From IMG/VR virus record IMGVR_UViG_3300031555_004942, positions 53,110 through 117,109 of that record: a DNA stretch of 64,000 nucleotides, one strand, 5' to 3'. Of this stretch, positions 5,822 to 51,200 are shown one piece after another (the stretch's first letter is position 1; the number at the start of each line of letters is the position of its first letter). This DNA comes from a virus. Lineage: Duplodnaviria > Caudoviricetes. The position numbers and the translations under genes were made by a program. The notes below the pieces were generated by a model that was not told the DNA's origin, did no database searches, and saw nothing but the letters and a program-made list of their open reading frames with translations.

Positions 5822-7114
5822 ATGCCTAAAAAAAGTCAAAAAGTAGAAACAGTTGGAATAAATGAAGTAAAACGAAAGTTAGGACCAATGGGGAAAAAAA
5901 TAAAAGAATTTTATAGAAACCAAGATGATGTTATTGGGACATATTTTTCTCCACAATCAGAAAAAATAAAAGAAGATAGAAAAATATGTACTATGTGTAA
6001 TAAACCTTTACCTGCAGGTGATTTTTGGCAAAGTTTTTCATATATTAATTCTGCAAGAACAGATATTGATAGTAAGATGCATTTACCTGTATGTAAAGCA
6101 TGTTCTCAGAAGTTATTTGATTATTATTACGAAAAAGTACATCATAAATCCTATGTAAAAGCAATGGAACATGTATGTTGTGATTTGAATTTATATTGGG
6201 ATATAGATATATTCAATGCTTGTAAAGAAGTGTATGAGCATAACCAGAGAAAACTACATATATTGTCTGAGTATGTAGGTGCTTTAAGTAGAAGAAGTGC
6301 TAATTTTATCGGACAGACTTATTGGGATAGTCCTACAATAGTGAATAGAAATATAACTATTGTTCAAGGACAGAATCAAGATTTTGAAAAAAAACTCATT
6401 AATCCTGAGGATAATCCTGAATTATTAAAGGATGGATGGGATACCCCTTTAGATTGGGAAAGGGAAGATGCAGAAAATAGAAAAAAAATTATACGTGTAT
6501 ATAGATATGATCCGTTTGAATATGAAACGGACGAAGATAAAAAATCACTTTATAGGGATTTAGCAGCAATGTTAGATGATGCAATGGAAGATGATTTTGT
6601 TAAATCTAGAGGTGCTTTAGAAGTAGTTAGAGGTTTTAATAGAATAGAAAAATTAGGTAAAAAAATAGCAATATTAGAAAAAGAAGAAGCTGAGGCAAAT
6701 GTTATTCAAAGATATGTTGATATGAAAACTAAAGAACGTGCTTCCATTACAGCATATTGTAAAGATAATGGTTTTGCTGCAAGCTATGGAACAAAAAAAG
6801 CAAAAGGTGCAGGAACATTATCAGGAATTATGAATGAAATGAATGAAAAACAATATGAAAGAGGTATTTTAAATAGGTTTGATGTTAAAACAAGTGAAAG
6901 TATTCAACAAGCAGCTAATGCATCTGTAAGAGCTATTTTTGACCAATTAAATATTGGAGGTAATGAACAATATACTATTATTCAACAGCAAAGAGATTTG
7001 ATTTCAAGTTTGCAAAAAAAACTAGATAATGCTGAAGAAGATTTAAGAAAAGCTGAATGTAAAATAGTTGAATTAAAATTAAATAAACAATTGGAGGAAT
7101 CTGAAGATGATTAA
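5822..7114 (+). CDS. Zn-finger protein preceding TerL; probable terminase small subunit
   Basis: CTMC...CKAC zinc motif; C-terminal coiled coil; overlaps the terL start; ATG 5822 follows GAGGTG (ORF-track GTG start is 5813). Confidence 0.55.
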   Translation: MPKKSQKVETVGINEVKRKLGPMGKKIKEFYRNQDDVIGTYFSPQSEKIKEDRKICTMCNKPLPAGDFWQSFSYINSARTDIDSKMHLPVCKACSQKLFDYYYEKVHHKSYVKAMEHVCCDLNLYWDIDIFNACKEVYEHNQRKLHILSEYVGALSRRSANFIGQTYWDSPTIVNRNITIVQGQNQDFEKKLINPEDNPELLKDGWDTPLDWEREDAENRKKIIRVYRYDPFEYETDEDKKSLYRDLAAMLDDAMEDDFVKSRGALEVVRGFNRIEKLGKKIAILEKEEAEANVIQRYVDMKTKERASITAYCKDNGFAASYGTKKAKGAGTLSGIMNEMNEKQYERGILNRFDVKTSESIQQAANASVRAIFDQLNIGGNEQYTIIQQQRDLISSLQKKLDNAEEDLRKAECKIVELKLNKQLEESEDD

Positions 7115-22818: not shown

Positions 22819-22856
22819 TTAAAAATTATTATAAAATATGATTGGCAGGTATTGTT

Positions 22857-24281
22857 ATGAGCAAAAAAAAAGAAAAAATAAAAATTAATTTTATAGGAGC
22901 TAACGCTGATCAGGTTACAGGTTCTTGTACTCATATTGTAATGAATAATAAACAAATTTTATTAGAATGTGGGTTAATGCAAGGAGGTAAAACTATATTA
23001 GAAGATTATAGAAATAATGTAAAAAAATTTAGTTTTAATGCCTCTCAGATTGATTATGTTTTTGTAGGGCATGCACATGCAGATCATTGTGCTATGATTC
23101 CTAGATTGATAAAAGAGGGATTTGAAGGTAAGATAATTGTTCCTAAAGGAAGTAGTTCAATAATTTATGAAATATGTAAAGATTGTGCTTTTATTATGTT
23201 TAAGGATTGTGAATCATTAAGAAAAAAATATAAAGATAAACAATTTTTACCTGCGTATACTGAAGAACATGTAAATTTAATGATGGACCATATATATGAA
23301 TATGAAATGGAAACTAATTATTGTTTAGACGATAATGTTTCTTTTACTTTTTACAATAGTCAACATATTGTATGTTCTGCTCAAATTATGCTTTGGTTAA
23401 CGCAAAACAATCATACAAAAAAAATTATATATACAAGTGATTTAGGTAATATTTCTGTAGAAAATAATTATGTTCAAGAAATTACAAAACTTCAAAAAGC
23501 AAATCTTTTGATTGGAGAAGCAACGTATTGTGAACATTCTAAACCACTTACACATAAACATAGAAAAAAAGATTTAGAAAAAATAAAATGTGTAATAGAC
23601 CAATGTGTAGAAAATAATTCGTCTTGTTTAATCCCAACTTTTTCTTTGCATAGAACACAAGAAATGATAACAGAAATATATAAAATATATAAAAACAATA
23701 ATGTAAATATTGATTTTATTATTGCTTCTCCTTTAGCAAATAAAATTTGTGATATTTTTTTACAGATTTTAAAAGGAGAACAATTAAAACTTTTTACAGA
23801 GGTTATGAACTGGAGTAAATTAAAAAGAGTAAGAGATTATGATAAAGTAAATGAGTTATTAAATGATAAAAAGCCACATGTATGGTTGGCTTCTTCAGGA
23901 TTTATGACTGCAGGATATTCTCGCAGTATTTGTTCTTATTTATTAGGTAATTCAAAAAATACAATTATTTTATCAGGATATGCTCCAGAGGGTTCTTTAG
24001 CTTATAAGATAAAAAATGGAACAACAAAAACGATTACTATAGATGATAAGGTTTGCAAAAATTTAGCAACTGCTGTAATTCTTAAAAGTTTTTCAAGTCA
24101 TATGCAATATTATGATTTATTAAAATATTATTCAGATAGTTTTGTTGAAAAAATTTGTATTGTTCATGCAGATAAAAAACATAAGATAGATTTTTGTAAA
24201 ACTTTACAAAGTGAAATAAATAATAAAAATAAAACGCAAAGAGTAGTATGTGTCACTAATGGTACATCTATTAATTTATAA
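22857..24281 (+). CDS. Metallo-beta-lactamase / beta-CASP ribonuclease (CPSF73/Ysh1-like)
   Basis: VTGSC; HAHADH; HIVCSA; YTSDLG; EATY; LIPTFSLHRTQE; ASSGFM..G; FSSH; IVH; ORF track gives an alternative TTG start at 22842. Confidence 0.9.
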   Translation: MSKKKEKIKINFIGANADQVTGSCTHIVMNNKQILLECGLMQGGKTILEDYRNNVKKFSFNASQIDYVFVGHAHADHCAMIPRLIKEGFEGKIIVPKGSSSIIYEICKDCAFIMFKDCESLRKKYKDKQFLPAYTEEHVNLMMDHIYEYEMETNYCLDDNVSFTFYNSQHIVCSAQIMLWLTQNNHTKKIIYTSDLGNISVENNYVQEITKLQKANLLIGEATYCEHSKPLTHKHRKKDLEKIKCVIDQCVENNSSCLIPTFSLHRTQEMITEIYKIYKNNNVNIDFIIASPLANKICDIFLQILKGEQLKLFTEVMNWSKLKRVRDYDKVNELLNDKKPHVWLASSGFMTAGYSRSICSYLLGNSKNTIILSGYAPEGSLAYKIKNGTTKTITIDDKVCKNLATAVILKSFSSHMQYYDLLKYYSDSFVEKICIVHADKKHKIDFCKTLQSEINNKNKTQRVVCVTNGTSINL

Positions 24282-24298
24282 TAAAGGAGAAAAACGAT

Positions 24299-24952
24299 AT
24301 GAAATATAATAAAGGTTTTGAAGACGTTATTACTTTTTTAACTCCTCAGGTGGAAGAGTTTGCAAATTTTAAAATCCCTTCTGTTGAATCATTAGAAGAA
24401 TGGAATGATTTTAAAAATAGAAAAATTTATCTTGATTTTGAAATAGGTGATTATTTAATTACAATTTCAAAACGTATTATTTCATGGAATAGCGAAGATA
24501 AAGATATTCCAAAAAATGAAAGAAAACCAATAACAATATATATTAATTCCCCTGGTGGAAGTTTACAATCATGTATGACATTTATAGATGTATTAAAAAT
24601 GTCAACAACTCCTATTAATTTAATTTGTATTAATGGAGCGTATTCCGCAGCAGGGATGATTTTTATGTGCAAAGGAGAAAACATTGTTAGATCTATTGTC
24701 CCACATGGAAAAGTTTTGATTCATCAAGGTAGTTTAGGTATGGGTCAGGTTCAAACACATCAATTTTTAGATTTAGCTTCAGATGTACAAAAAGATGAAA
24801 AAAAAGTAAAAGATTATATTTTAGAAAATACAAAAATTACATCTCGTATGTATGATAAAAAGAAGAAAGATGAATGGACTTTAAATGCTGAAGAATGTAT
24901 TCTATATGGAGTATGTGATAAAATAATTGAAGATATTTCAGAATTATTTTAA
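24299..24952 (+). CDS. clpP: ClpP-like serine protease
   Basis: YINSPGGS; AYSAA (catalytic Ser); LIHQ (His); D in KKDEW.LNAEE...YG.CD.I. Confidence 0.88.
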   Translation: MKYNKGFEDVITFLTPQVEEFANFKIPSVESLEEWNDFKNRKIYLDFEIGDYLITISKRIISWNSEDKDIPKNERKPITIYINSPGGSLQSCMTFIDVLKMSTTPINLICINGAYSAAGMIFMCKGENIVRSIVPHGKVLIHQGSLGMGQVQTHQFLDLASDVQKDEKKVKDYILENTKITSRMYDKKKKDEWTLNAEECILYGVCDKIIEDISELF

Positions 24953-30214: not shown

Positions 30215-33200
30215 ATGGATAAAGATATTAAAAAAAATGAAACAACTGGTTTCTGGGATACAAAAAAATGGAGAAATTTTCTTTCAGATATGCAAAGAAA
30301 TGCAGGTTCTTTAGGAATAAATAGTGAAGTAAGTGAATTGATGAAAAAAACTCTTTCAGATAATGCTTTTAAAGCAGATTTTAAAGGAGTTCAGAAACTT
30401 TTTGGGCAAATTCAAGATTTGCAAGGTGGGTTAGATGCTCTTAAAACAATAAAAAATAGTTCTACTAATTTATATAAAGATTTTGTACATAATCTTTATG
30501 GAACTACTTCAGGAAGTGATTATCTTAAGGAATATACATCTCAACAAATAAAACGATTAAATCAAGTAAAATCTATTGTGAGTGGTCAAGAAAAAGAATT
30601 GACATGGGCAACTAAAATGATAGAAAATGGAACTATTATTGCAGAGGGATATAATCTTGCAGGTAATAAAGTAAGACGTAGAGAATATACTCAAGGTAAA
30701 AGCAAACCTGTTTTTTCTAAAGGTGTTGATTATGATAGAAGTGGTAAAATTTCGGCTTCTTATTCTCCTTATAGATATAATGATGTTAATAGTAGGGGAG
30801 ATGTTGTATCAAGAGGGGGTATGTTGAAAACACATTATGATAAAAATGGAACTGTTGTAAATCAAGATATTGTAGATTATAGAACCTCTAAATCTATCAC
30901 TCAACCTGTATCTAAAACATATAGACCAAATCAAGTTCTTAAATCAACATATAAAGGAGTAGGTCCTACAAATAATGATATTTTTATTATGGGAAATCAG
31001 AGATATTCTAAGTTTGTATCAAATAGTCCTATTCAATTAGATAATCAAAAAGATAAATTTGGAAGATACAATGGTGCATTAGAAAGGTTGAGACAAGGAA
31101 TTGATGAATCAATTGCTAACATTGTAAATCAAGGAACACAAGCTATTGATAAAATGTCTGTTAGTACTGTAAAAGGAAGTAATTCAAGGAAGATAAGTAC
31201 ATCTTCTTTTAAAGGAATAGATCCTAAGAAAATGAATTATTTTGATTTTGAAACAATTGGTCAATTAGGTCTTGGCAATTTTATGCCTACTCAATTTTCT
31301 GTTAGACACCAAGATGGTAAAGTTGATAGTAAAGTTTTAAAAATGTCTCAAAAAGGACAGGAGTATATAAGTGGGATTTTAAAAGATTTAAAATCAGGAA
31401 ATTGGGGAAATTTGAATAATGATAAACTTAGGGATTTAACACATATGGCAGATTTCTCTGTAATTAACGGAAAGATTGCTACAAAACACGAAAATTTTTC
31501 TGGAATTCGTCCAGATCAAATTACTGGTAATTTATTAGCTAATATAGAATCTGGTTTTGAGATTTTAAAAAATGCTGAAAAATATACTAATGGTACTGCC
31601 GATGCAAAAAGTGCTATAGAAAATATGTTAAAATCAACTAAAGGGACTATGGTTGGACATAATATTAGATCTTTTGACAATGAAGTATTTAAGCAATTAG
31701 GTGTTGATTTTTCAGATTTTAAATTTTTAGATACTTTAGAAATGGCTAAAAAATATTATAATTATGGAGATATGAGACAACATATTAGTGGAGGAAAATC
31801 AGTACATAAACGATTGATGGGATTTAGTCAATCTCATCTTCAGGATTTCTTCAATATTGATATGAGTGATTTATTAAAACAAGGTATTAATCAACATACT
31901 GCAGAATATGATACGGAATTAAATAAAAGAATTGCTGAAGCAATGTTTAAAGAAATAAATTCAAATCAAGTAAAAAATCGCTATGTGGGAGGAAAAGTTG
32001 GTTCAGTAAAAGTTGGACAGGTTGGAACAGCAACTAAAGGGCATTTCAGACAACATGCATATGATTTTAAAACAGATGCAATGGGAAAAGTTTTAAGAAA
32101 AAGTGAAAATGAGTGGAATGATTTATTGATGAGAAGTGGTGGGCAATATGCCTATGAAGGAAAAACATCAATAACTGATACTAAAGGTGTGGCTCGTAAT
32201 TTTGCTAAATTCTTTGATTTAAATAGTGGTGAATCTGTTTATAAATATGTTGCTGATGATGTTGACCTTGGAAAATTTATGAGTGATATTTTTAATGGAC
32301 ATTTTTCAACAATAAAAGATACAACAACATCTGCAAAAGCTTCGATTTTTAGAGGAGATACAGGTTATGCTAATTTATCTGCATTAATGTCTGCATTACA
32401 AGGCAATTCTGTTTCTCAGAGACAACAATATAGAGCCAATATGCTTAAAGAAGCAGATGGTGGTAAATTTATTACAATGGCTCAACAAATCTATAAAGGT
32501 TTAGAGGGCAGTGGGTTATCAGATATTCAAAAAAGTTTAGCTTTAGAATTAATGGGTTCAAAAATGGGAATGTCTCAACAAAAAATGTTTTCTATGAATA
32601 ATATTAGAGATTTAATTTCTTTAAGTTCTGGAGGTACTGTTAATGGGACAGTTTCTGCTTTGAAAACATTTTTAGGAAAAAATAAACAGTTCTTTGCGAA
32701 TTCATTAGAGTATAGTAGTTTGTTTGAAGATATTGATATAGCATCAAGAGGTATGTCAGATTCAGCTATGGGAACGTCAGGAGATAATTTTTATGGAATT
32801 TATCAACGAATTGCTGAACAACTAAGAGGAAGTGATTTTGCAAAACAATATGAATCACAACTTAAATTTAATAAAGATGTGTATAAAAATGGATATGATA
32901 TTAATAGTATAGTAAAAAAATCAATTGAAGACGTAAATAAATTTGTTAGTAATACTGGAGAAGATGCTTTGGAAAGAATTTATTCAAGTTCATCCAGCGA
33001 AATAAAATCAGCTCTTGATGGAAAGTCATTAAATAAAAGATTGGGAAATCTACAAAAATTAGGTGTATTAAAAGATACGTCTATGGTTGCGACAAAAAGT
33101 ATTTCAGAACAATTATCAAAAAGTATAAAAGGGTTACAAGAAAGTGGTATTGGAACACGAATTAGTCTTTCTGGAGATGGTACTGGATTGAATTTAAGCT

Positions 33201-36200
33201 TATTCGATAGTGCTGATTCAAAAAGTATATCATTTAATTCAGAAGGAAAGATGATATTAGATCCTAATAGATCTGCTTCTGTGTATATTCCATTAGATAA
33301 AGGAAATGGAATATTAGATGATAATGGAATGTTAAAAACAAATATGATGACTACAACTTATGATGGAGAATCAGGTTTTAAATTAACAACATTACAAGAT
33401 AAAATGATTGAATCTATTACAAGAGTTTTAGATTCAGGTAGTATTAGAAAAAATATGTCGGAGGGTAAATTTTCTGCTATAAATAGTGCTTTATTTCATG
33501 CGAAACAAAATGCGTTGAATTTATCTCCATCGGCAGGTACTTATAAACAAGGTTCTATTTGGAATGACTATGAAGATTCTTTTAAAGTTGGGGCATCTCC
33601 TGAACAAATGGCAATAAGAACAAGTATGGTAAATTTAACAGATGGTATTGTTAATTTGTTAGATCAAAATTATGATATTACTCCAAACAATACAGAATCA
33701 TATAATTATAGTCAAGCTATTCAACATGTTATGGATTATGCAGCCTTATTATCAAAAGGAATTCCGAATATAAATGATATGATTTCAGGAGAAAACTCAC
33801 CATATTCATGGATGATAAAAAATGGTAAAGAAGGAGCTTTTGAAAAAACAACATCTCATTTACAAAAATTAGTATCTAATTTACCTATGAATTTAAGTGC
33901 AATAAAAGAAGCAGCTTATTTAAATCAAACTTATGGCTTATTAGGGACTGGAGGTTTTGCTCCAGGATTTGAATGGCATCCAGAAGACCAAAGAAATATT
34001 GCTCAATCACATAATAGACTTAAATTGAAAAAAGCAACAGGATATGCTAAAGAGGCTATGAAAAAAGATGTATTTACATCAGACGTTGCAAAAATTTTTG
34101 GTTTTACTCCTCAAGATACTGTTGAAGCAGGATTAGTTACAGAACAGCATGTTTATGAAGGATATAAAAAAATGTATGAAGCTCAAATGCGAGATGAGGG
34201 TAAAATTAAACCTGAAACAGATGCATGGAATAAAGAATTAAAAAGGAGAATGTCTTCATCTCCTATGTTGTCGGTAGAAAATGATAGTGGTATTATAGCT
34301 AAAGATTTTGCAGATAGTGCTTTTTATTCCATGGAAAAATCTATGACCGTAAATGAAGAAGATTTTTATAAAATTTTAAATGGTAAAACAATTCAAAATA
34401 TTGAAAAATCGGGGTTACATGTATTAGACAAAGGATATAATCTTAGTCAAATGTCTATTGGAAATAAAACTATTCATGATGGAGATATTTTAAAATCAGT
34501 AACAAATAATGGGGATGGCACATATTTCTTAAAAATGGAAGAAATATTGAATATGGGTAAAAATGCTCATTCAAAGGCAATTTCTGGATCTGGAAATAGA
34601 TTTACTGTAGGTTTGGCAAATAGTGATTTAATGAAGTATATAGCTGAAGCAGCAGGATTAAGTTCTGTTCCTACAATGTTTTTAAAGAAAAAGTTAGAGC
34701 CAAGTGAAGATGAAAATGGTAATAAAGTATATAAAAATGAGCTTAAACAAAAAGATATTGCAGGAGCATGGAATGAAAGACTTCAAAAAATATTTTCTGA
34801 TTATTTATCTCAGGGTGGAGATAATAATATACAGAGTTTATATAACAGTTTGCCAAAACAAATGCAAAAATATTTTTCTATATCTGATGGGCAATTAAAA
34901 GGTAGTAGTTATTTTGATGGGACTTCATGGAAAATAAAGGGTTCTAATGAGGAATTATTTGAGAATGAATCAGATATGAAGCATTTCTTTGATTTAAATC
35001 AAACAGGATTAATTGCACAAACAGCAAAAAATTTAGGTGTAACATATGACCCAAATATGATAAGAACTGCTGTTAATATGGCAAATGAGTATTCTTATTT
35101 TTCTGGATTTGGATATAATCCAGATGAGGCTGAATTTGATAGTAAACATAAAGTAACTATGAAAGAACAAGATGCTGTTCGTAGAAAAATAGGAGCATTA
35201 AAAACAAAAGATAATACGTTTGAAACATTTTCTAAACATATGGCTGATTATATTACTAAATCAGAGTTACAACTACAACCCTTACGACAAAAAGCTACGA
35301 GAATTGATAAAATAGTAAGCACAGCGGCTAATGCTAACGCAAGTGAAGCAAAAAAAGCTATTGCTTTAGGGGAACGTACTCTTAAAGTTGTTGATAGATC
35401 AATAAATAGTGAATTAGCTGATGATGAAATTAGTTTACATTCATTAGGAAATCATAGAGGAATTACAAAAGATGGTAAAATATCTGAAAATGCATGGAAA
35501 AATACTTCTGCAGGTATTTTTGCAGAAAGAGCTAAAAAATTAGGATGGGGAGAAGATTATCAGATTGTTTATGAAGGACAACCTGTACAAATTACGACAG
35601 GTGAAGGTCATGTAATGCAAGGAAGTACTATGGTTTTTGGCAATCATGGTTCAGAAATAAAAAAAGGAAAAGTTGCTCCTTCTTCTTTAGATTCGTCTGC
35701 GGATAGAGTTTGGAATGCTTTAAAAGCTATAAAGACAGGAACATATCAGGGAGATATCCCCGCTGATGAATATGTTGCAAATCTTTATAGTTCTTATTTA
35801 AAAGATACTTATGATATGACTCATAGTAAAGAGAGTCCTTTATTTCAAGAATTAAATTCTAAAAGATTAACAAATGCGACAGCAGGAAAAGCTGCAGGTA
35901 CGAACTATGTTCAAATGAGAGCAGATTTTGGGAATGCATATAGTAATGCAGTTATGGTAAACCCAGAGCATTTAAAAGAAATGCTTTCTATTGATAAAAA
36001 AAATGTGTCTAAAGAAGATTATAATGCATATAAACAAAACCTACAATGGATGTATGAAGATTTAGTCCCTCAAAATAATCGTATAAAAAATATGAATAGC
36101 GTATCTTCTTTAATTGATGGAATTGTTAATGCTGTGACAATTGAAAATTCAACATCTGGACCATTAACAAAAGGATTAGAATCAATGTTCCATCGTTTCC

Positions 36201-39200
36201 CATCAACTAATGGATTGGATGAGTATTTTGGACAATTATTTGTTTCTAAAGGATTACAAAAAGGAAACATATCTGTAGGAGCAGGTCTTGCGTTAAGAGA
36301 AAACTTAGACTTTGATGGTGATGTTCAATATGCCGCATTATTGGGATTAAATAATAAATTTAAAGATAAAAATGAATGGAATAAATTTAGAAAAGAAAAT
36401 ACTAAAATAAGAACATGGGATGAGAATATTTCAAAAAAACTACAAGCAAAAGTTCTTAGTGAAGCTAATGTAGAAAATAGTGATGTATATGATTCAGAAA
36501 ATGTTGTAAAAGCATTGCAACAATATAATGAAACAGTGTCAACTCCTGTATTTTCTAAAAAGAATTTTGGAAAAATAGGTGGATTATCTAACTTCTCTAC
36601 TGCTGTTAGAAATAAAATGAAAAATGCAGGTATTGATGAAACTTCAAGTTCTGCAACTATAGAGCAAAAAGCAAATGCAATAATGACACGTTCTGTATTT
36701 GAACTATTTGAACAAGATGCTATAAGTTCTAAAAAAGTTGCTCAACGTATGCTTTCAAAATCAGAAGGAAATGAAAAAGCACTTATTGATGATTTAGATA
36801 ATTTTTATAAAATGTTAAGTAGTATGGATTATTCATCAAAAGGGGCAAAATGGAGTTCTGTATTTGCAGAAGCAGAAAGATTAGGTATTTTTGGGAAAGA
36901 TGGAGTTTTTGATACCAGACAAGCTCATAATGCTGTTTCTACTATAGAAGAACTTGGTAGATATCATGGTTATGGTGGTTTAAAAGGTGGAGTTGCAGGT
37001 AGAGCCTTATTAGAAAAAGTATTTGGAAAAGGCACTGTTGGTAGTTTTTATGATGAAAAGGGGAATCTTTTATCTGGAGATGTATTAAAAACAGCAGGTG
37101 TTGTATCTCGTGATGCTTATTTGAAAGCAGTAACAGCTATTGATGAAAGTTTAGGAAAAGATTCTTTAAGTTCTGCGATATATGATGAAAAAAATGTTAT
37201 TGGTCGTGCTTCTCAAAAATCTTATGAAAAAGCTGTAAGAGAATATATGAAAACGTTCTCTAAAAACCATGGTATGGGAAAAATGACAAATAAGGACATT
37301 TATGCATCGGGAATTAATGGTACAACACTTATTGATAATTTATCGCAAGAGAGTGGACAAACAGTTATTCCTGAGGTTCAACAACAAGGAGGTCAAGCAG
37401 GACTTGCATTATCTCAGGATGCAGTTGCAATAATTGAAGCTATTACAAATGCATTAAATGGACAGACTGCAGCATGGAAAGAAAATGGAATGGCTGTAGG
37501 AAATGCTATAAAAAATACAAATGCAATGACTGTAGCTCAAAGAAAAAATGCAGAATTAATGAAAAATCCTGTTAATGCAAGAAAGGCAGGGTTAAATGTT
37601 CTTCCTGGTGAAAACATTATGGAAAATTATGATAATATTGTTCATTCTGCATTAAGTGGCTCAGGTCAATCTATGTTTACTGATGAACTTATGTTTAGAA
37701 ATATAAGAAAAGCAGAATTAGACCAAGAAACTCATAAATATTTTGTTGATGGTAAACAGCAAAATATTGATTTCTCATTATCTCAAGCAGGAATTTTAGG
37801 AAGAGAAAATAAAACTTTTACTGAATCTTTTGCGACTTCAGAAAGAAAACAGTTATTTAAACAATATTTAAATGGTGAAGATATAAAAATTAGAAATTCT
37901 TTATCTGATATGCCTACTGTTTATTCTAGTGCTAATGGCAATCAAATTAGAGATTTAAGAGATTTAGAAGATAAGGCAGGATATTATTTCCAAGATATCG
38001 CTGCAACTGAAAGAGGTAGAATATTAGGTGATGTTACTCATGATATGTTAGATCATTATTCTCAGTTGAGTAATACTCGACTTAAAAGTATGACTCCTGA
38101 TAGTTTTATTTCTCAATATTTCGCAGGAAATGTTGCAGGTACTAAACTTAATGATTTATCAAAAGAATGGAGTTTAGCTGGAGGAACAGGTTCTTTGTTA
38201 GAAAATCTTCAAGGAATTTCAGGAAATACTTTTAAGGCTATAAATGATCTTAGTATTGTAGGTATTGATAAATTATTTAAAGATGCAAGTAAAAATAATT
38301 TATTGTCTCAATCCGAACAATCTTTTGTGGGTGAAATATATGATCCAGTTACAGGAGCTTTAAAAACATTTGGTGGTACATTTGATGCTATTTTAAAAAA
38401 TATGGTAGTAGACTATAAAACTGCTAAAAATCCTGATGTAAATAAATTTGCTGTACAATTGGAAATGTTATTAAGGACTATTGAATCCTATGCAGGTTCT
38501 GGATTAAATGATAGTGCAGTGCAAGAATTATACTCGCAGATATCTAAAGCAGGTATTGCAATTCATAATACTCAAACAGGTAATACTTCTGCAATACAAT
38601 TAACAAGACCAAGTAATGCTGCTTTGGCAAAAACAATGAATTATATTCAATATAGTCAATCTTTGCAAGATATGTCTGAAATTAGAGATCCTAATTTTGT
38701 AGATCTTGTATGGACAAAAGGAGATCTTAGAAGATTTTCAAATAATAAATTACAAAATGCATATAGAAATATTAGTGAATTCTTATATCAAGGGTCTACA
38801 TCTGGTGGCACATCTGAAGAGAATTTTCAAAAATTTTTATCTGGTTTTGCAAAAGATGGATTAACTTTCAAAAAGAATAAAGGAACTTCGGAAAGTAATA
38901 AAGGAACTTCTTCTTGGTTTGTAGATGATAATGGACAACGTATGGTTATGAGCGTAGATTTTGCTAATGGTAGAGTGTCAAGTCCAAGTTCATTAAAAGT
39001 TAGAGAGCTTATTTCTGATGAAAAAGGAAAATATTTAAGTGATGAACAAACATACTCTCATTATTTAAATGAATATTTAAAAGCATATCAAAGATATAAT
39101 GATTTCAGTTTGTCAGATGAGGAACAAAGACACGCTACAGCTAATTTTAATAAAATGCGTGAAAAACTTTTCAACTTTGAACAACAAGGATTTTTAACAC

Positions 39201-42200
39201 CTGAAAAAATCAATGAATTAAGACAAGCTCATTTAGATAGTCCTGAAGCAGAAAAGATGTTGAAAGCAATAGGAGAACCTCCAAAAGAAGCATCTCAAAG
39301 GAATTATGTAAGTGCATATCAGAGATTATCAGAAGCTCAAAATAAAATAAGATATCAGGAAAGTTTACCTACAGCTTTAAGAGATTCAAAAGTTTATGAT
39401 ACAGAGATAATGAATGCTCAAAAAGCACAAGCTGATTTAGATAAAGCTCGTCTTGAATTGTATTCAAAAGAAGGTGGTGGAGTTAGAAGTGATGTAGAAG
39501 TACAACAATTGCAACAAAGATTGCAAGATTATGTTAATTTCCATCCTTCAATGTTAGGAAAAATAATTCCTCAAGAAGCATCTTATGAAGATATTACAAG
39601 ATTAGCAAATGATGATAGTAAAAGTGCAGGATATAATAAAATTTTATCTGACAGATTAGCAATAATAAAACAACTTGTTTCTGCACAAAATGAATTAAAT
39701 TCTCTTGTTAATAGTGGAGACAAAAAAGCTATTACTAATGCAACAGCAAAAAGAAATCAAGCACGAGCAGAACTTGACAATATAAATAAAATTATTGGTG
39801 AATTAAATCCTTATTTAATAGATGCAAATAAACAAATTGTTTCTGATACAATGCAAGAACAAGATAAAATATTATCAGGCGAATCAGCAAATCTTGAAAA
39901 AGGTACAAAAGAGTATGAGCAAAGAAAGCATATGGTTGAAGATTTTAAAAAATATAATAAAGAAATATTAGATTTGCAAGAAAAACAACATGCTATTCAA
40001 ACTAAAATGAAACAAGGAAAAGCAACAACTGATGATTATGCTCAACTTCAACATATACAAAAACAAATTTCTGATACTCAGGCAATTATGCCTACACTTG
40101 ATAAAGATGGTTTTATTTCTGATAAAACAGGAGCTAAGTTTAAAACAACTGAAGCTCAACAAGCTGATATTCATCATACATTCGCTCAACAAGAAAGAGA
40201 TTATAATAAGCGTATAGCTGAACAAACTATGCTTGCAAGTGGTAAAAAAGGGCTTGGAAATTATTTAAAGAATTTAGGCAAACAAACAATTGGATATTTT
40301 AGTATGTCGATGTCCTATAAAATTATAGGTATGATTACTCAAATCTTCTCTAGTATAATTCAGAAAACAAAAGAATTTAATAAAACAATGATTGATATTC
40401 AAATTGTTACGAGAAAATCATCTAATGAGGTTGGAGATTTAGTTAAAGAGTATAACGGATATGCTAAAGAATTAGGGGTAACAACACAGGCTGTAGCAAC
40501 TTCTGCAAACCAATTTTTACGTATGGGTTATAATGCTCAAGAAACTGCAAAGTTAATTGAAAGTTCAATGAAATTATCTAAATTGGGTATGATCGAAGCA
40601 GGTCAAGCGGCTGAATATCTTACATCTGCAATAAAAGGATATCAATTATCTGCTCAAGAATCTGAGAAAGTTGTTGATATGGCTACAACTCTTGATATGA
40701 GTTATGCAGTCGATGCAGGATATATTTTATCAGCAATGTCAAGAACAGCTACTTCTGCTAAATTAGCAAAAGTTGAAATGTCTGAATTACAATCAATGAT
40801 TGCAGTTATTGGTGAAACAACTCAGAAAGATGCATCTGTTGTTGGTGAGAGTTTAAAAACTGCATTTGCAAGATATGGTAATGTAAAAGCAGGTGTTGCA
40901 GCAAAAACTAATTTATCTGATTTAGATGAACAAAGTAAAGATGAATTAGAAGCTGTAAATGATATTGAAAGAGTATTAACTACATATAACATAGATGTTA
41001 GAGAATCCGATAATAAAACATGGAGAAGTTATTCTAACATAATGAAAGATATTAATGAGCAATGGGCAAAATATTCTGATTATGAAAAGAATGCGATTGC
41101 TACTGCTATGTTTGGTACAAGACAGAGAGAAAATGGATTAGTTGTTCTTGAAAAATATAATGAAGTATTAAAAGCAAATGAGAAGGCTATAAATTCTGAA
41201 GGAACAGCAAATAAAAAATATGAAACATATCTTACAGGTGTAGAAGCTGCTCAAAATAGATTTACTGCGACATGGGAAAAATTCATCAATAATATTAATG
41301 GTAGTGATGGATTAAAAGTATGGTATAATCTTTTAACACAGATTGTTGAAATGATGAATCATTGGAAATTAATCTTAGGAGTAATTGTTGCAATGAAAGC
41401 TCCACAGATCTTTACTGCCTTTGGTAAGTTTTCTAATTCTTTTGGTGGATTTTTTACTGGTGCAAAAAAGACATGGGGATCTGCAACTTCTGGTTTTAAA
41501 GAAAAAGGATGGTCTGGAGTTTGGCAAGGAACAAAACAAGCTTTTAAAGATAGTTGGGGCGACATTGAGACCGATGCTAAAAATAAATTGAGTTTAAAAG
41601 CTGAAGTTCATGAAGCTAATAACCTTTTAGCACAAATATTACAAACACTTCAAGGAAAAGATATTGATGGGGATAATGATTCAAATACTACACAATCTGC
41701 AGGTTCAAAATCTTCAACACAAAATAATTTAAATAATCAAAATGTTCCTATTTCATTATTAGGTAATGGTCAATCAAATCCAAGACCAAGTGGGGGAGTT
41801 AATATAATTCCATCAGACGGAAGTGTTATTCCAATGGGTGGAACTGTAAAAAATGTTCTTTCTTATGGAAATAATCCAATATTATTAGGAAATGGCTTTG
41901 TTCCTCAACCTGTAGGAAATGGTATTATGTCATTACCTCAAGGTAATATTATAACAGATCCATCATTAATGTTACCTCCTGCAATAAGTGGAGGTCCTGT
42001 AGGTAAAGCTATTTTACTACCAAAAACAGCAGGGGGAGTTAATGTAATTCCATCAGATGGAAGTGTTATTCCGATGGGTGGAACTGTTGGTAGTGTTATT
42101 GATAAAAAGAAAAAAACAACCAATAAAAAAGAAAAAGCAGAAGCAAGAGCTAAAAGAGAACAAGAAAAACAAAAAATTAAAGATGCACAAAAAAGAAATA

Positions 42201-45200
42201 AAAAAGCAGAAAATGCTCGTAAAGAATATAATAGAACAATAGATAAAGGTGGACCTTTTACAGAAAAAGATAGGGGATTTTTTAAAAACAAAAGAGAAAC
42301 AATTAAAAACATGCCACATACTTCTTTGTCTTCTACCTTAAGAAAAACAACTATTGATGCTGATATTGCAAGAGTAGAAGATAATATTGATTCTATGTTT
42401 ATTGGTAGTCATCATAAAAGACAACAAAGATATAATGAGTTATTTCATGCAAAACGATATAGTAAACGTAGTTTTAAACCAACAAAAATAAAAAATGTTC
42501 AGAGAAATGCTTTAATTCCAACAACAGGGATAGCTGTTAGTGAAAATACCAACATTCCTAACAAACAAGGATGGTTTAGTCAAAAATGGCATGGATTTAA
42601 AGACAGATTAAGAGAAGAAATTGCTTTTCGTGAAGCACGAGGAGAATACAGAGTCGGAAAATTAAGACAAAAAATAAATAATCGTTTTGGGCATAATAAA
42701 GGATTTACAGATATTCCATGGACTAATGATCCTTCATTAATGTTACCTCTTGGACAAAATACTAATAACATTCCTCAAAAACAGGGATGGTTAAAAAAAG
42801 GTTGGAATAAAACAAAATCCGCTATTTTAAAGCCATATAAATTTTTAGACAATAAAGTAAAAAATAGTCAGGCGGCTGCAAATATGGCATCTACCATAGG
42901 AACTATGACTGGTTTTATTGGTGGAGGAATGCTTGGTAATGCTATTAGTGAAGAACATGGTGGAACTATTGGATCATTATTAGGAATTACAAATATGGCA
43001 ATAACTGCTATTAATCCTTTAATTGGAGCTATAACTGGTGTAGTTTCTACTGGATTAGGTATTATTGTAAATCAAATAAAAAAACATAATGAGAAACAAA
43101 TAAAGTTGGCTCAAGAGCATTATGAAAAATTACAGAATAAAGTATCAACTTTAGAAAATTCAACTAAGGATTTTAATAGATATGATTTGTTATCACGTGG
43201 AGTTAATGAATTTGGAAATAATGTTTCTTTGTCTGATTCAGAGTATGAAGAATTTTTAAAACTTGGAAACGATTTAGGAGAATCTTTCCCTGAATTGATT
43301 ACTCGAATTGATGAAACAGGAAATTCATTTCTTGGCTTTGATGGCAAGATTGGCAATGTAGTTCAGGGACTTGAAGAATTCACTAAACAATTAAAAAAAT
43401 CTGAAGCAATTGCGGGATTAAATAAAGATAATCTTGAGGGTGAATATAGTTCTTATGTATCAAGGATTAGAGATATAAAAGATAATATTCAGAGTAAAAA
43501 AGAAAGTAGTAAGTTTTTATCAGATTCAGAAATTCAAAGATTAAATAAAGAGGGAAAATTTTATATTAATAAAACAGAAATGTCTGATGAAGATATAAAA
43601 ACTTTAAAAGAATTAAAAAAAGATAAAAATTTAAATATAAAAAAAGAAGAGTTGAGTAATTCTCTAAATAATGGGTTTTGGTCAAGTGTTTGGGCAGATA
43701 TTAAGTATGAGTGGGGACTTGGAGAAGATCCATATTCAGATGTTTATACATTTAAAAAAGAAGATCTTGAAAAAAATAAAGATTTAGAAAGATTGTATTA
43801 TAAATATTCTGGAGATATAAATACTTCTGAACAATCTATAAAACAACAAGAAGCAGAAATAAAAAGAATAAGTGGACAATATACCTCAGATATATTAAAC
43901 AACTTAATAAATTCTGGACAAGTAAATCTTGATAATGATACAAAATCTATGGTATCTACTTTACTTAATAATTTATTCCCTGATATAGATGAGGCTACTA
44001 AAGTTTGGAATAGCAGAGAGGGAGAAGCAGTATCTATAAAAGATAACATATTGGATATTGCCAACCTTATTAGTTCTGGAGATAGTGCAATTTATTTAAA
44101 ACAAATGTCTTCAATAAATACTTCTGATAATTTACAAAATGCCAATAATTCATTTAATGAATCTTCTAATAATTTAAAAAATGAATTATTTGTGAAAAAT
44201 TCAGCATTTGTGAAAGCGTTAGAAAATCAAGGCTATGATATTGATTATAAGAAACAAACAGTTACTAAAGATAACAAGACTCAAACTTTTGATGATTATA
44301 TTTTAGATTTAACTCCTCAGGGTAAATCACTACATAATCTTAATATTCAATTAGATAGTAAAACTAAAGATGGTAAAAATCTTTATGATATTGATGGATT
44401 ATCCAGAGATGTTTTACAGACAGAATTTTCTCAAGATGAATTAAGAGAAATATTAGGAATGAGTGAATTAGAAGTTAAAAATATAATAGGAACTTCAACA
44501 GGGGATGAAGCTATAGATAAATTAAGAACACGAGCAATCATTAATACTCAAAATTCTATGGATGATGTGTCTGGTTCATTTGTTACTGCTTTCAGGAATC
44601 TTGCGGATAAAGATGGCAAAAAAATATTTGATGATTTAACAGAATCTGAAATTGCTCAATATGCACAAGATTATTTTGATTATCCTGAAGAAACTTTAAA
44701 AAGATTAAATGAACAAGGAGTAACGCTTAATGATTCTATGCTTAAATACCTTGAAAGATTAAAAGAATATGCGGATCAATTAGATATGTCTGTGGATGAT
44801 TTTGTTAAGAATGCAAAATATGTATCTCATTTAGATTTAAATGGTTTTAGTACAAAAAAAGCATCAGATATTAAAACTGAAATAAATACTTTAATGGAAG
44901 TTGCTGATTCTATTCGTCAAGGAAATGAAATTACTGGAGAGCAGATGGATGCTTTAATGAGTTCTAATCCAGAAATATTAAATGAAGCAATGAAAGATCC
45001 CAATTATTTAAATAATCCTACACAAGCATATTTATCAGCAATTGAGAAACAATTATCGTTTTTTGAAGGAGCTTCACATAATGTATCTATAGGAGGATAT
45101 TATGCGAAGGATAGTACAGGATTTTGGGATACATATATTGACCCTAACAATGATTTATCTTGGATAAATTCTTTGGGTGGGGCAATGAATGCTTCTAAAT

Positions 45201-48200
45201 ATTTCATAGGAGAAGATTTTAATCTTAATACTAATTATAAGAGCGAAGATTATGATAAAAAATTTACTGACAAAAGTGGATTACAATCTGGAATTCAAAA
45301 GATAAAAACAGACCAAGGATTTACAACAGATGCACAGGCTTATGATTATTTAGTGACTACGTTTGGTACATCTGAACAAAAGCAAAGGTATAATAAATTA
45401 AGTGGTACAGATAAAGAAAATGAAGCAAAAAAAATTGCTGATGAATTGGCTACACAATATTATGATTGGTTAGAGAATATAACTGATTTAAGTCCTGAAT
45501 TAAAAAAAATTTTTGAAAAAATCGGAGAAAGTATAAATATTTCTAATGAGGTAGAAAATGCAGAAAGAGATGCATCTAATTATTATGGACTTCAAGATTT
45601 GAGACAAAAAATGTCAAGACAAAGAGAAGATTATAAAGAACAATTAAAAGATTTAGAGGTTCAAAAAAGATTAAATGAATTAGAGAACTATCTACAAAAA
45701 CGTAATCTTTTAATTGATAGATATAATAATGAGATTGCCAATGCAGATTGGGCATTAGATATAATTGCTCCTTCTGATTATTTTGGTAAGATTGATATAA
45801 CTGCTAATAAGTTAGAAGCTACTTTGAATAAATATAATGAGCTAAAAGCTCAATTTAAAGAGTTATCTGAGATGACACCTCAATCTCCAGAAGAAGCTCA
45901 AAAAATAGCTGATACTATGAAATCTATTACTGATCAAATGCCAGAGCTTACAAAAGAATTAGCAAAAGCAGAGGAGACTCTTAAAAATATTGCTTTAGAT
46001 TCTATAAGTGAAAGTATAAATAATATTACGAGTTCATTTGATCAACAACGAAAAGTATTAAATAATTCTGTTGAAATGTCTTTAAGCTTTACAGGAGTAA
46101 GTTCTAGTTTGGATTTATTAGGATTGGATTATACTCCAATGATAGAAAATAAAACTGAAGTAGAAAAAAAACAAGATGAATATAAAACATTATTATCTAT
46201 GCAAGAAGATTTTCAGGATGAATCTTTAGAGTCTCAAAATACTTATTTAGATTTATTAAAAACAGATCAAGAAGAAGAGTATTTTAAAAATAAAAAGAGA
46301 CTTAGAGAAGATGATATAGCTTCAATGAGAAGTTATTATAATGAATTATGGGCTTATGCGAAATTAGGTAAAGAATTAACTGAAGACGAAATGAAATCAG
46401 TAGTGTCTTATTTTAAAAATGCTGAGGGCATTGATTTCTTACCTGATTTTTATCAAACTGGTAATGGCAAGTGGAGATATTCACAATCAGGTAAAAGTGG
46501 AGAATCAGATGATGAGGATACTCCAGAAATAGATAATAATGCGATTGGGCAAATAACGAAAAAGATCTCTAATAAAGAAACATTAACAAAAGATGAAAAA
46601 GAACAATATGTTAATCATTTAAAATCATTATATGGGGATAAAAAACAAGAAAAATTTTTTATAGAAAACGAAGATGGATATTCTTTTAATCAGGAGGAAT
46701 TTCGTAAATCATTACTTCAGCCTGATGGTTCAATATTAATGCCTACATCATCTGCTAATATACCATCACAAGCTGATATAACTAAAACAGTAGAGCAAAT
46801 GATAAAAACAGGTGTTGAAAATGTTGATGTAAATAGCACAGAAATAAAAACGAAATATATAGCCCCAAAAATTGGGCAATTACTTGGAGCGTTTTTAGAT
46901 GTTTGGAATGAAGACAAAAATAAATTAGAATATAAACTTACAAAACCATCTCTTTTAGGATTTTCTGATGGGAAATTATCAGCCGATGGAGACAATAAAG
47001 GATGGGGTAGTCAAGGTTTAATTCAAGACATGAAAGATGCTATGAAAGAAGTAATGCATGGATTAAATGAAGATAGTTCTAATTGGAAATTAAATGCTCC
47101 AACTCCTGATAAAACGTCATGGGAAACATTTGGACAAACTATCGGGGAATATATTTCCGATGGCATTGATAAAGGTGTAGAAATAGGATTAGCTCGTCAA
47201 TCAGAAGATTCTTTACCTACTTCTGAGGGTTCTGGTTCTGCAGGAAGTATGTCTTCAACAGCTACATCTTCAGGTTCAATTCCAACTGGTGCGGCAATGT
47301 ATTTTCATTCTCCTTATGACAAAATTAATGGACATGTAGGTATTTATGGTGGAGATGGATATATATATCATTTAGGTAAAGGAGTAAAAAAAAACACTCT
47401 TCAAGAATTAGAATCAAAAGGATATGTATACAGAGGATGGGGTTGGAGTGGTGGAAAAGACCAATCTAACCAAGGATATAAAATTGCTGAAGAAGCTAAA
47501 AAAATGAGTAGTTATGGATATGCTTCTGGAAATTGTCAAAAATGGGTGTCTAAAGTATATCAACAAGCATTAGGTGGAAATAGATATCAATATACAAGAC
47601 CAAGTGCAAAATTAGCAGGAGATGAGTGGATTATTGGTAATGCAAGAGATGGAGAAAATTCTTCACTTGTGGGAATTAATCAGAATACAGCAATTGGAAG
47701 ATTAATTGCTAAAAAAGCTCAAGAACATAATTTGGGATATGGTATTTCATTAGATGGTTTAGGTTTTCTTTCCGCTAAATATGAGGGTGGAAAAGTAGGT
47801 GCTATTGCTACAGTAAAAGGAGATCATGGTGGAACATCTTATGGTATTCCTATGTTTGCAACAAATACAGGTTCTGCTGATAATTTTGTACGTTGGTTAA
47901 AAAATCAATATCCTGACCTTGGTAAATTTTTTGGTTATCATAAAGCAGGAACTCCTGGATTTAATCAAGCATGGAAGAATGTATCTGATTTATATTCTCA
48001 GATATTTGGACAAGCTCAAATACAATATGGAATGGATACCATAGTAGACCCTCAATATAATAAAATCCTTAAAAAATATGGATTAGACATGAAGAGAAGT
48101 AGAGCTTTATATGAAGTGTTAATTTCAATGGCATATCAATATAATAATTTATCTACAGGATTATTAAATGGGTATAAGTCAAATATGACAGATCGTGAAA

Positions 48201-51200
48201 TTATAGAATTAATTTATAATAATAAAGCAAATAATGTTAGTAGTAATTTCAAAAGTAGTTCTAAATCGGTACAAAGAGGAGTTGCTAATCGTATCAAAAA
48301 TGAAAAAATAGATGCTTTAACATTAGCTGCTTATTCTATAGGTACTTCATATCATAAAGGAGGTAAGGCTCTTTTAGGAGATGAGAATCTTTTAAAAGGA
48401 ATTAATCAACCAAGTCCTGAAACATTAATTTATCCAAATGGAAAAGTAGAAATTATCGGAGAAGATGGACCAGTTATTAAAAATATTCCTATTGGCACTC
48501 AAGTATTAACGACATCTCAAACAAAGGCTTTATTTAGGAATATACCTAATTATGCAGAAGGTACAGAAGTTGGCAAAGCATATTTTACAAGTGGTAATTA
48601 TAATATTAGAAAAGGTCCTAATGGTGAAATTATTACAACTATTCCTAAAGATAAATCATATGGATTCTATTTAATGGATGAAAATGGGGAATGGAAAAAA
48701 GGTACATTCTATTATGGAAATGAAGAAAATAGAAAAATGATGGTTGGTTGGATTCATCAAAATGGATTAAAAGAATATAAAGATGATTCTAATAATACTC
48801 CTATAGAAGCACATAATGTATATAATGATGGAGAAATAGGCAAAGAATATTCAGCATCAACCATATCATCTCAAGAAAATAATGATAATAAAGAGACTTC
48901 GAAAAAGAAACTTACTAAAGAAGAAATTCAAGCAATTGAGAAAAAAGCTCAAGACTTAATTGATACATTATCAATACCATTTGAATCAAAAGCTAAGGAA
49001 ATTCAGATAAATAAATTAAATAAAGATTTATATAAAAAACCTATAATTGAGTTATATGAATATATGGATGATACTACTACTGATTATGTAGAACGTATAC
49101 AAAATAAAGCTATGTTGGCAATGTATAAAAAAGAAGGAGACTTAGATACTTTATATCAAGAAGCAAATTTATATAAAGATCAACAACAAGCTTTATTAGA
49201 AGAATATTATGCAGCTATAGAACGTGGTGAAAGTACAGAATTTTTAAGCAAACTCAAAGATTCAATTTTGGAATTAGATGATGCTCTTAAGAGCGTAGAT
49301 TCTGAAATCCAATCATGGGTTGATGAAATGATTTCTTATGCTACTCAAGCATTGGAAGCCTTTAGATCTAAGATTAATCATGAACAAGAAATGTTAGATT
49401 TTGATTATAACTTAGGAGTTATTGGTAAAAAGACTGATGAAAACTATTATAAGGTAAGGTCTGAAAATAGAGAAGAATTAAAAAGACAATCAGAAAAATA
49501 TATTGATTCTGTTGTTAATACTATTGTTAGACAAGCATTAATTGAGGGAGCTTCTGTTGAAGCTGCATATAATAAAGCTTATAATAGTGAAGAATATAAG
49601 ACTGCCATAAAAGAACATTATCAACTCTTTGAGGCTGAAAAACAAGATAACGAAGATAAATTAGCAAGTCAACGAGAAGAAATAAGAAATAGAGAAACTC
49701 TATTAGATTTATCAAGAGAAGAACGTTGGAATAATCTTGATAATATTAATATCTATTATGGGGAAAAAGAAGAAGCTATAGATAATGAAATAATAGCTTT
49801 AAAAGAAGCATTAAAGTGGGAAAATCTTTCTCATGAAGAATATGTACAAAAAACTATGGAAATAGCAGATCTTGAAAAGAAAAAAGCAGATAATATAAAA
49901 GCAAGATTAGAAGCTATGCAAGAATTCTATAGTAGACAATATGATTCTATGACGTATATGGTTAATGAATATACCGATGCTCTTAATGATGAAAAAGAAG
50001 CTATTTCTAAGACTTATGATGAAGAAATCAGAAAATTACAAACTGTTAATGAGCAAAAAGAACGTGGCATAAAACTAACCGAATTACAAACTGCTTTAGA
50101 TAATGCTAAAAAAGAAAAGAAACGTATATATAGAGCAGGTGTTGGTTTTGTTTATGAAGAAAACAGAGAAGAAATAAACAAAGCAGAAAAAGAATTAGAA
50201 GATTTCTATAGTCAAGATCGTATTGATAGCATGAATGAAGCTAAAGAGTTAGAATTAAAAGCACTTGATGAAAGGATTGAAGGTTGGAATAAATATCTTG
50301 AAGCAATTGAAAAAGTATATAAAACTGCTGAAAGACGTGACCATATGAAAGTACTTGAAGGCTTATATGGAGTTGAAGGTTGGGAAGGTATTTGGAAAAT
50401 TTTAAATGATGATTCAAATGAATTCTTAATAAATAAAGAAGCAGGTCAAGACATTTATTATGGTCAAAACACCAATATGTTAGAAAATTATATAGGTGTA
50501 TCTTCTGAAATTTATAAAAAAATGGATGAAGGTGTACAACTTTTAAAAGATATAAGTGAATATGAAACATCATCTGTAAAATTACAAGGAGTTCCTAATT
50601 GGAGAGATTATGCTCATGTTATAAGTGATTTTAATGCAACTGCATCTGATTCTACTTTAATTCAACAGTTAAATGAAGAATATGGTTGGAATTTAACTCC
50701 TCAAGATTTAAAAAATATGAGTGACCAGAAATATAATGATTTATTTGCTGAAATAACTCAGTTATTTGAATCTAAAGGTCCTGAAGAGGCAATGAAATCA
50801 TTAAAATATGTTTTAGAAACAGGATGGATAGATGGAGATTCACCTTTGGGTACGCTTACTTATGGTACATATCAACAAGCATATAATATTGGTAAAGATA
50901 TATTGTTAAAAAAAGGTTCTCCTTTATATAACACCTTTAACCAACCAACAAACCTTGATTTAAACAAATTAGGTTTATCTTATGGTGTGTATGTTCATGA
51001 TGGATTCTCTAATAATCTTATCAAAGATGGTAGAGTTAATAAAGATTCGATAGATTATAAAAAATTAAAAGAAGGTCATTTTTCTGATGAAGACATATAT
51101 AATTTTGCTTTTTCAGACATGATAAAGCAAAAAGCTAAAGAAGCTATCGAAACAGATTTAGATATAAATGGTGTTATTTTACCACAATTTAAAGATGGTA

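Follow-up and report, generated by a model that had tools for sequence, protein, structure and literature searches.

Locus and polyprotein

The window analyzed here is a stretch of 64,000 nucleotides (nt), bases 53110-117109 of the 117-kb virus record IMGVR_UViG_3300031555_004942 in IMG/VR (GC content, 28%; translation table 11). Its plus strand carries a tape measure polyprotein in which a catalytically intact-looking two-barrel RNA polymerase lies N-terminal to the tape measure, an arrangement that is family-wide. The features of the polyprotein are as follows (window coordinates; aa, amino acid position; DPBB, double-psi beta-barrel; AF2, AlphaFold2), with their basis in parentheses:

30215-51742, plus strand: tape measure polyprotein, 7,175 aa, in the order exonuclease, RNA polymerase, nuclease, tape measure, cell-wall hydrolase (single uninterrupted open reading frame [ORF], table 11)
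31226-31939, plus strand: DEDDh 3'-5' exonuclease-like domain, aa 338-575, with D344, E346, D488/D506, H561 and D566 (motifs; Pfam in homologues)
32882-37024, plus strand: predicted single-chain two-barrel RNA polymerase, aa ~890-2270 (rise in alignment occupancy; AF2 model; structure matches)
34277-34609, plus strand: beta-type barrel (DPBB-B) motifs END-SGII and K1454..R1462 (K/R conservation; N-terminal half of the model against beta-like subunits)
35327-35833, plus strand: beta'-clamp-like domain between the barrels, aa ~1705-1873 (model alignments)
36191-36322, plus strand: beta'-type catalytic barrel (DPBB-A), R1994-x-P1996 and D2032-F-D2034-G-D2036 (invariant, 33/33; beta'-like profile matches)
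36524-36736, plus strand: bridge-helix and trigger-helix equivalents, G2122..N2126 and Q2167-DAIS-S-K2173-K2174 (helices in the model; end-points of beta' alignments)
37982-38509, plus strand: RecB/AddB/Cas4-like PD-(D/E)xK motif set, aa 2590-2765, with G2605, H2609, D2724, D2733, K2735 and Q2748 (family conservation)
40460-41116, plus strand: PhageMin_Tail domain, aa 3416-3634, where the tape measure proper begins, ~3,850 aa to the C terminus (Pfam PF10145, above cut-off)
47759-48307, plus strand: VgrG3-like C-terminal (lysozyme-type) domain in the distal tape measure, aa 5849-6031 (Pfam PF21277, E = 2e-33)

A two-barrel polymerase fused to the tape measure

An initial annotation, made from the sequence, had placed a virion RNA polymerase fused into a tape measure protein at 33950-36740. 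The location held and the limits did not: the conserved module is larger (aa ~890-2270, nt ~32882-37024), its N-terminal limit lying at aa ~890, where the occupancy of the family alignment climbs and several homologues begin. All of the motifs named by that annotation were found in the ORF, in the order given. ENDSGIIAKDF starts at aa 1355 (nt 34277), and the beta-type motif SKAISGSGNRFTV at aa 1453 supplies K1454 and R1462 with a spacing of 8; both positions are K or R in 29/29 homologues that cover them. LNSKRL (aa 1880) does lie just ahead of the first strand of the catalytic barrel and is poorly conserved. HRFP at aa 1993 and NLDFDGD at aa 2030-2036 (nt 36302-36322) place R1994 38 residues before D2032. 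IGGLSN (aa 2121) and QDAISSKK (aa 2167), read as post-catalytic helices, coincide with helices in the model (aa 2104-2170) and contain the invariant G2122 and Q2167, in a register that we infer; alignments to beta' extend to model residue ~931-936.

Among 33 aligned homologues, which are 15-37% identical to the window polymerase, R1994, P1996, D2032, D2034, G2035, D2036, G2122, Q2167, I2170, S2171, K2173 and K2174 are invariant (33/33), so that all three DFDGD aspartates are conserved throughout. When the protein was shuffled 2000 times, the combined pattern R-x-P..N-x-D[FY]DGD never arose (0/2000), against 1.4% for D[FY]DGD by itself. None of the Pfam and PHROG models detects the polymerase domain.

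The same chain is a tape measure protein, as had been proposed: it carries PF10145, matches PHROG tape measure families 14441/4211 and occupies the expected position in the tail module, after the tail tube gene and two chaperone-sized ORFs and ahead of the tail genes. The tape measure region matches 109 phage records, of which the best annotated are Enterococcus/Bacillus tape measure proteins. Within the distal tape measure, beside the lysozyme-like domain, a segment at 47282-47614 (GHVGIY..GNCQKWV) resembles a permuted NlpC/P60-type peptidase. Farther upstream, positions 41460-42400 (aa ~3750-4060) contain a low-complexity insert, rich in Gly and Pro and in part repeated, after which comes a very basic stretch.

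Predicted fold and structural matches

When Protein Data Bank (PDB) sequences were searched with family profiles, nearly all matches were to beta'-like subunits, among them phiKZ gp55 (E = 4e-4) and vaccinia Rpo147 (E = 5e-5). An AF2 model of aa 1085-2270, built from an alignment of 37 rows, reached a predicted local distance difference test score (pLDDT) of 75.6 and a predicted template modeling score (pTM) of 0.77, and spans both DPBB domains, in agreement with the two-barrel fold first suggested by the motifs. All 34 of the Foldseek matches in the PDB at E ≤ 0.001 were largest subunits of RNA polymerases. The best VIA-align match was QDE-1 (Z = 10.9-11.1, 381 residues aligned, root mean square deviation [rmsd] 4.8), and P23-45 gp64 (Z = 9.4) and P74-26 gp62 (Z = 9.3-9.5, 347 residues aligned over chain positions 3-437, rmsd 4.8) also matched; these three alignments cover model residues 43-1123 and thus both barrels. 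The match to beta' (Z = 8) includes the clamp, and identity to QDE-1/RDR2 and cellular beta/beta' is ~10%. The N-terminal half of the model aligns with Pol I and plastid beta-like subunits (Z = 5.5-5.8). A search of 48,161 chains that did not depend on Foldseek ranked two-barrel polymerases in all of the first 17 places, P23-45 gp96 among them (Z = 7.3, 281 residues aligned, rmsd 4.4); phi14:2 gp66 (6VR4) was absent among the structure matches listed. Since the list of matches is consistent and the catalytic residues are invariant, the polymerase assignment is firm despite moderate Z values. Residues ~890-2270 are, as modeled, a single-chain two-barrel RNA polymerase, with RNA synthesis as the predicted activity.

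The connector between the barrels is long, with 540 aa separating K1454 from R1994. Model residues 621 onward align with beta'/RPB1 from residue ~14-25, and residues 599-789 match the archaeal clamp construct 3QQC (Z = 6.5, rmsd 5.2, 151 residues aligned). The middling Z values support, short of proof, the modeled connector as a beta'-like clamp. In BFVD, two look-alikes lacked a functional annotation (A0A8S5SD80, template modeling [TM] score 0.58; A0A7R7G2L5, TM score 0.47); one of the two bears the name "minor tail protein" (E = 1e-28, TM score 0.58).

Homologous loci

Searches with the single polymerase sequence gave no match in PDB sequences, in a word search of long proteins, in viral contigs or by tblastn in phages. 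This reflects divergence and not absence, because phmmer, queried with aa 1200-2300 against 1.84 billion representatives, matched 26 proteins. In this motif-blind search, every match that spans the site has DxDGD, preceded in nearly all of them by R-x-P at a distance of 36-39 residues; most of the long matches also align to the tape measure region. Further scans brought the total to 53 loci: polymerase and tape measure share a reading frame in 41, 8 are too short to tell, 2 have a separate polymerase ORF and 2 are unrelated beta'-like sequences (L029 and L030, short ORFs with weak matches, excluded from the family). The same-frame fusion is thus seen in 41/43 informative loci, across phages that use code 11 and phages that read TAG as Gln, a count of loci and not of independent events, as many TAG=Gln loci are near-identical. 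The scans that gave L014-L054 were seeded on QDAISS/DGD patterns, so the conservation counts are partly circular; the motif-blind phmmer matches agree with them. Members include complete phages of 150-217 kb from gut-type and other metagenomes. The fused-polymerase profile had no match in the cultured YonO-bearing phages BUCT082, SPbetaL2, PMBT24 and TR-TP1, two of them SPbeta-like.

Locus L007 is collinear with the window protein (33% identity over aa 59-2751, with a second match at aa 4223-5365), which makes an assembly chimera unlikely. L007 was also considered as a two-subunit enzyme; this was rejected, as its single in-frame TGA stands where the window has Gly and is taken for a point change or an error in sequencing. 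At L009 (10001-16918), a stand-alone exonuclease and polymerase gene of 2,305 aa lies between genes of 1,986 and 3,213 aa without tape measure matches, and may represent a free ejection protein belonging to another type of virion. At L013 (5028-16241), a polymerase-nuclease ORF stops at TAA and the tape measure ORF resumes in the same frame, either a natural split or a single nonsense change.

Many members read TAG as Gln (table 15; L012, L014-L023, L025, L026 and most of L035-L052), and the fusion is therefore hidden in them under table 11. Introns and DUF7487/HNH homing-nuclease genes accumulate in the PhageMin_Tail part, a hot spot in which they sit at a small number of shared positions; many tape measures are interrupted there, as at L003:18082-20954, L005, L010:16708-19652, L011:9295-9564, L012 and L034, and the L011 intron was confirmed as group I with Rfam.

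Flanking nuclease-like domains

The polymerase is flanked by two nuclease-like domains, to which the initial annotation made no reference. In the N-terminal one, the DEDDh catalytic set (D-x-E, D, H-x4-D) is complete and is conserved with L007 and L009. Pfam RNase_T was matched in homologues L009 (E = 1e-7), L003 and L006 and had no match in the window copy, whose comparison to PolC exonuclease reached only E = 0.62. The domain is optional, several members being without it. In the C-terminal one, RecB/Cas4-type motifs (G-x3-H, G-x2-D, D-x-K and Q) are invariant in 17/17 aligned members, Pfam PDDEXK_1 was matched in 4/9 homologues (best E = 6e-8), and profiles of the region matched a helicase-nuclease and, weakly, 4IC1 (E = 0.018), which we take to be a Cas4. 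The window copy alone has no Pfam match and is also missed by a hidden Markov model built from the other members, and its AF2 model (pLDDT 51) was too poor for a structure search. Owing to this undetected window copy and failed model, the motif-based assignment of aa 2590-2765 to a RecB/Cas4-like nuclease is likely but unproven.

Genomic setting and a second polymerase

The polyprotein belongs to a morphogenesis block in the window, where these genes precede it:

7107-9428: terminase large subunit
starting at 9796: portal
starting at 21243: tail-tube-like gene
starting at 26260: integrase-like gene

In the relatives, Pfam matches to YomU, YomW and YomX occur in the same order, so the morphogenesis module is SPbeta-like. 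This gene order, the Yom matches, a YonO homologue and the tape measure matches in Enterococcus/Bacillus phages bear out the SPbeta-like, Firmicutes-type setting of the initial annotation. The host is probably a Firmicute, because the tape measure and YonO matches are to phages of Bacillus, Enterococcus, Enterocloster and Clostridium and the genome has perfect sigma-A promoters. The genes scanned included no apparent sheath gene, which suggests a non-contractile tail. The terminase large subunit (773 aa) has a CELS.. junction near aa 75 that suggests an intein. The block also contains beta-CASP nuclease and ClpP-type protease genes (22842-24952), kept in L003, L007 and L012.

Upstream of the window, this genome (G000) encodes a second polymerase of YonO type (46208-49117; L055:2209-5118). 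The protein, of 969 aa, matches Pfam RdRP (E = 2e-13), has a DFDYD motif and is 41% identical to a protein of Bacillus phage BUCT082; an HU gene follows it, as in SPbeta. YonO transcribes the late genes of SPbeta (PMC5467207). A YonO-type gene is also present in 5/5 complete relatives (150-217 kb), and hence the fused enzyme is not needed as a late polymerase. Nor is the fused enzyme a YonO orthologue, a candidate rejected given that the genome has its own YonO and that hhalign gave a probability of 0.15 between the two; no member of the fused-polymerase alignment matched Pfam RdRP. The YonO operon is preceded by a perfect sigma-A promoter (G000 45102).

A minus-strand block of ~90 small genes extends over ~31 kb (G000 12.9-44 kb). 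Two sigma-A promoters stand at its head, and several sense terminators lie inside it. The perfect sigma-A promoters within the block are antisense only, with no strong sense promoter inside, and this combination of internal terminators and antisense promoters would fit internal phage-specific promoters. Five copies of a cassette occur in the block (G000:C1:14199, 15929, 23870, 34889 and 36326; L056, L057), each with a ribosome site, in most cases an ATG-ATT-TAA/TGA minigene, a 41-54 aa ORF, a purine-rich hairpin and a perfect sigma-A promoter on the opposite strand; in several, a terminator lies ~130-150 nt past the promoter. From their sequence, the cassettes look like short antisense RNAs over small ORFs, in a layout like that of type I toxin-antitoxin systems. 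A ~100-nt element repeated upstream of 38437 and 37478 (G000, minus strand; core CTTTAACG-n-AAAATATTCTGAATTCAGCAAAA) is a candidate non-sigma-A promoter or regulatory site. Ahead of a minus-strand gene of 235 aa, between divergent promoters, AAAAAGTTCCC..TTTTTTGGG elements recur (G000:C1:44741-45000) and could be a replication origin with iterons.

Proposed role of the fused polymerase

Because a complete polymerase lies within the tail ruler protein, the virus probably injects its own transcription enzyme. We consider it probable, by analogy with gp96, that virions contain the fused polymerase, that it enters the cell together with the tape measure and that it transcribes the first genes to arrive. 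Experimental precedent comes from gp96, which is active (fragment 327-1124) and full-length in virions (PMC10770324). The polyprotein would be built into a non-contractile tail; on infection, its distal part with the cell-wall hydrolase would open the wall and form a DNA conduit, and the N-terminal cargo would enter along with it and fold or be released in the cytoplasm. The polymerase could then transcribe the first-entering phage genes without host RNA polymerase, perhaps drawing DNA in meanwhile, with the ~31-kb small-gene block as the best candidate target. The RecB-like nuclease, and the DEDDh exonuclease where present, may act simultaneously on DNA ends, host DNA or the transcript. The separate YonO-type polymerase, expressed from its host sigma-A promoter, would serve the late genes as in SPbeta.

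Several observations weigh against this proposal. In a record that is ~67% complete, an expectation-maximization search for a phage-specific promoter motif gave hairpin and ribosome-site pieces only. No cultured phage carrying the fusion was found by tblastn of four family members against 50,697 phage records or by a profile check. With a sigma-A promoter ahead of the YonO operon, the virion enzyme need not turn on the second polymerase, unlike in P23-45. In L009 and L013 the polymerase ORF is apart from the tape measure. Finally, an enzyme with a clamp exceeds, once folded, the width of a tail tube, so the 1,400-aa enzyme and its nucleases presumably could not pass through in that form; the prediction is that they are kept in the tail as an unfolded chain, or else at the head end in the folded state.

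The last two points would also suit a polymerase that is cut off the tape measure at assembly and is active as a free head ejection protein, or as a middle or late enzyme with the fusion only timing its expression, and the morphogenesis block does hold a ClpP-type protease gene. We regard this as unlikely, since the fusion is retained in 41/43 loci, a YonO-type late polymerase is already present and gp96 remains full-length in virions (PMC10770324). Somewhat less likely again is an injected enzyme whose main job is not promoter-driven mRNA but genome entry or end processing with the nucleases, as a motor, a primer synthesizer or a maker of anti-defense RNA. The nuclease motif is as well conserved as the polymerase, QDE-1/RDR2, enzymes that copy single-stranded templates, are among the best structural matches, and the genome has strong host promoters alongside the failed search for a phage motif; however, a beta'-like clamp favors a processive enzyme of duplex transcription, and gp96 and YonO both transcribe genes (PMC10770324, PMC5467207). 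That the polymerase is an inactive relic adding only length or structure to the tail protein would accord with the low overall identity within the family, but is highly improbable when three aspartates, R1994 and the trigger-helix Gln are invariant and both basic positions are K/R amid 15-37% identity.

Beyond delivery of a gp96-like virion polymerase, we tentatively suggest, at slightly less than an even chance, that these large SPbeta-like, mostly gut-type phages form an independently evolved, widespread lineage whose tape measures act as linear cassettes to inject a take-over kit (a clamp-bearing cell-type polymerase, a RecB-like nuclease and an optional 3'-5' exonuclease). The kit would be kept unfolded in the tail until it refolds in the host, and would share labor with the YonO late polymerase. 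Tape-measure-borne polymerases, once an oddity of one Thermus phage group, are now seen in complete 150-217 kb metagenomic phages, where "minor tail protein" or blank annotations had concealed the fusion. The family differs from gp96 in architecture and apparently had a separate origin. Its clamp-bearing enzyme challenges the need for a flat shape in tail passage and makes unfolded-chain storage testable, and its nucleases suggest co-injection with the polymerase. As a new family of single-chain two-barrel polymerases, it is useful for the study of polymerase evolution and possibly as a source of tools.

Comparison with known systems

The closest known parallel is gp96 of Thermus phage P23-45, a virion RNA polymerase fused to a tape measure (Chaban et al. 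2024, PMC10770324; PDB 8H2M/8H2N); besides P23-45, that paper names only P74-26, G20c and TSP4. In the literature searched, with most subscription journals outside coverage, the fusion is described only for the P23-45 group and no report of the present lineage was found. The window enzyme shares with gp96 its single polypeptide chain, its two barrels, its DFDGD motif and its place toward the N terminus of a giant tape measure that includes a wall hydrolase, and like P23-45, the genome carries a second, non-virion single-chain polymerase. Sequence homology to gp96 was not detected, as tblastn of the same four members gave no match to it and 8H2M/8H2N were not among the profile matches at E ≤ 10. 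Whereas gp96 has a flat shape, no clamp, a short connector and an active core of ~800 aa, the enzyme described here is ~1,400 aa with a beta'-like clamp in the predicted model, and is flanked by nuclease-like domains. Its partner is of YonO type behind a host sigma-A promoter rather than a gp64-like paralogue, and the host type is low-GC Firmicutes rather than Thermus.

The likeness to SPbeta extends to YonO, HU, terminase, portal, tube, integrase-like gene and tape measure in the same order. YonO is itself a single-chain two-barrel enzyme in an SPbeta-like genome, but it stands alone, serves the late genes (Forrest et al. 2017, PMC5467207) and has Pfam RdRP similarity, and the fused enzyme is a different gene with no alignment to it. 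QDE-1/RDR2 and cellular beta/beta' give the best structural scores and share the catalytic residues; unlike the proposed role here, the former serve eukaryotic RNA interference, the latter are multi-subunit and none are virion proteins. The crAss-like phi14:2 gp66 and the N4 enzyme are likewise virion polymerases within very large proteins (as discussed in PMC10770324), yet they are not tape measure fusions, and that of N4 is T7-type. By analogy, the polymerase of the window may work like gp96 yet belong outside the gp96 protein family, from which the missing sequence homology and the clamp set it apart, and outside the YonO family as well.

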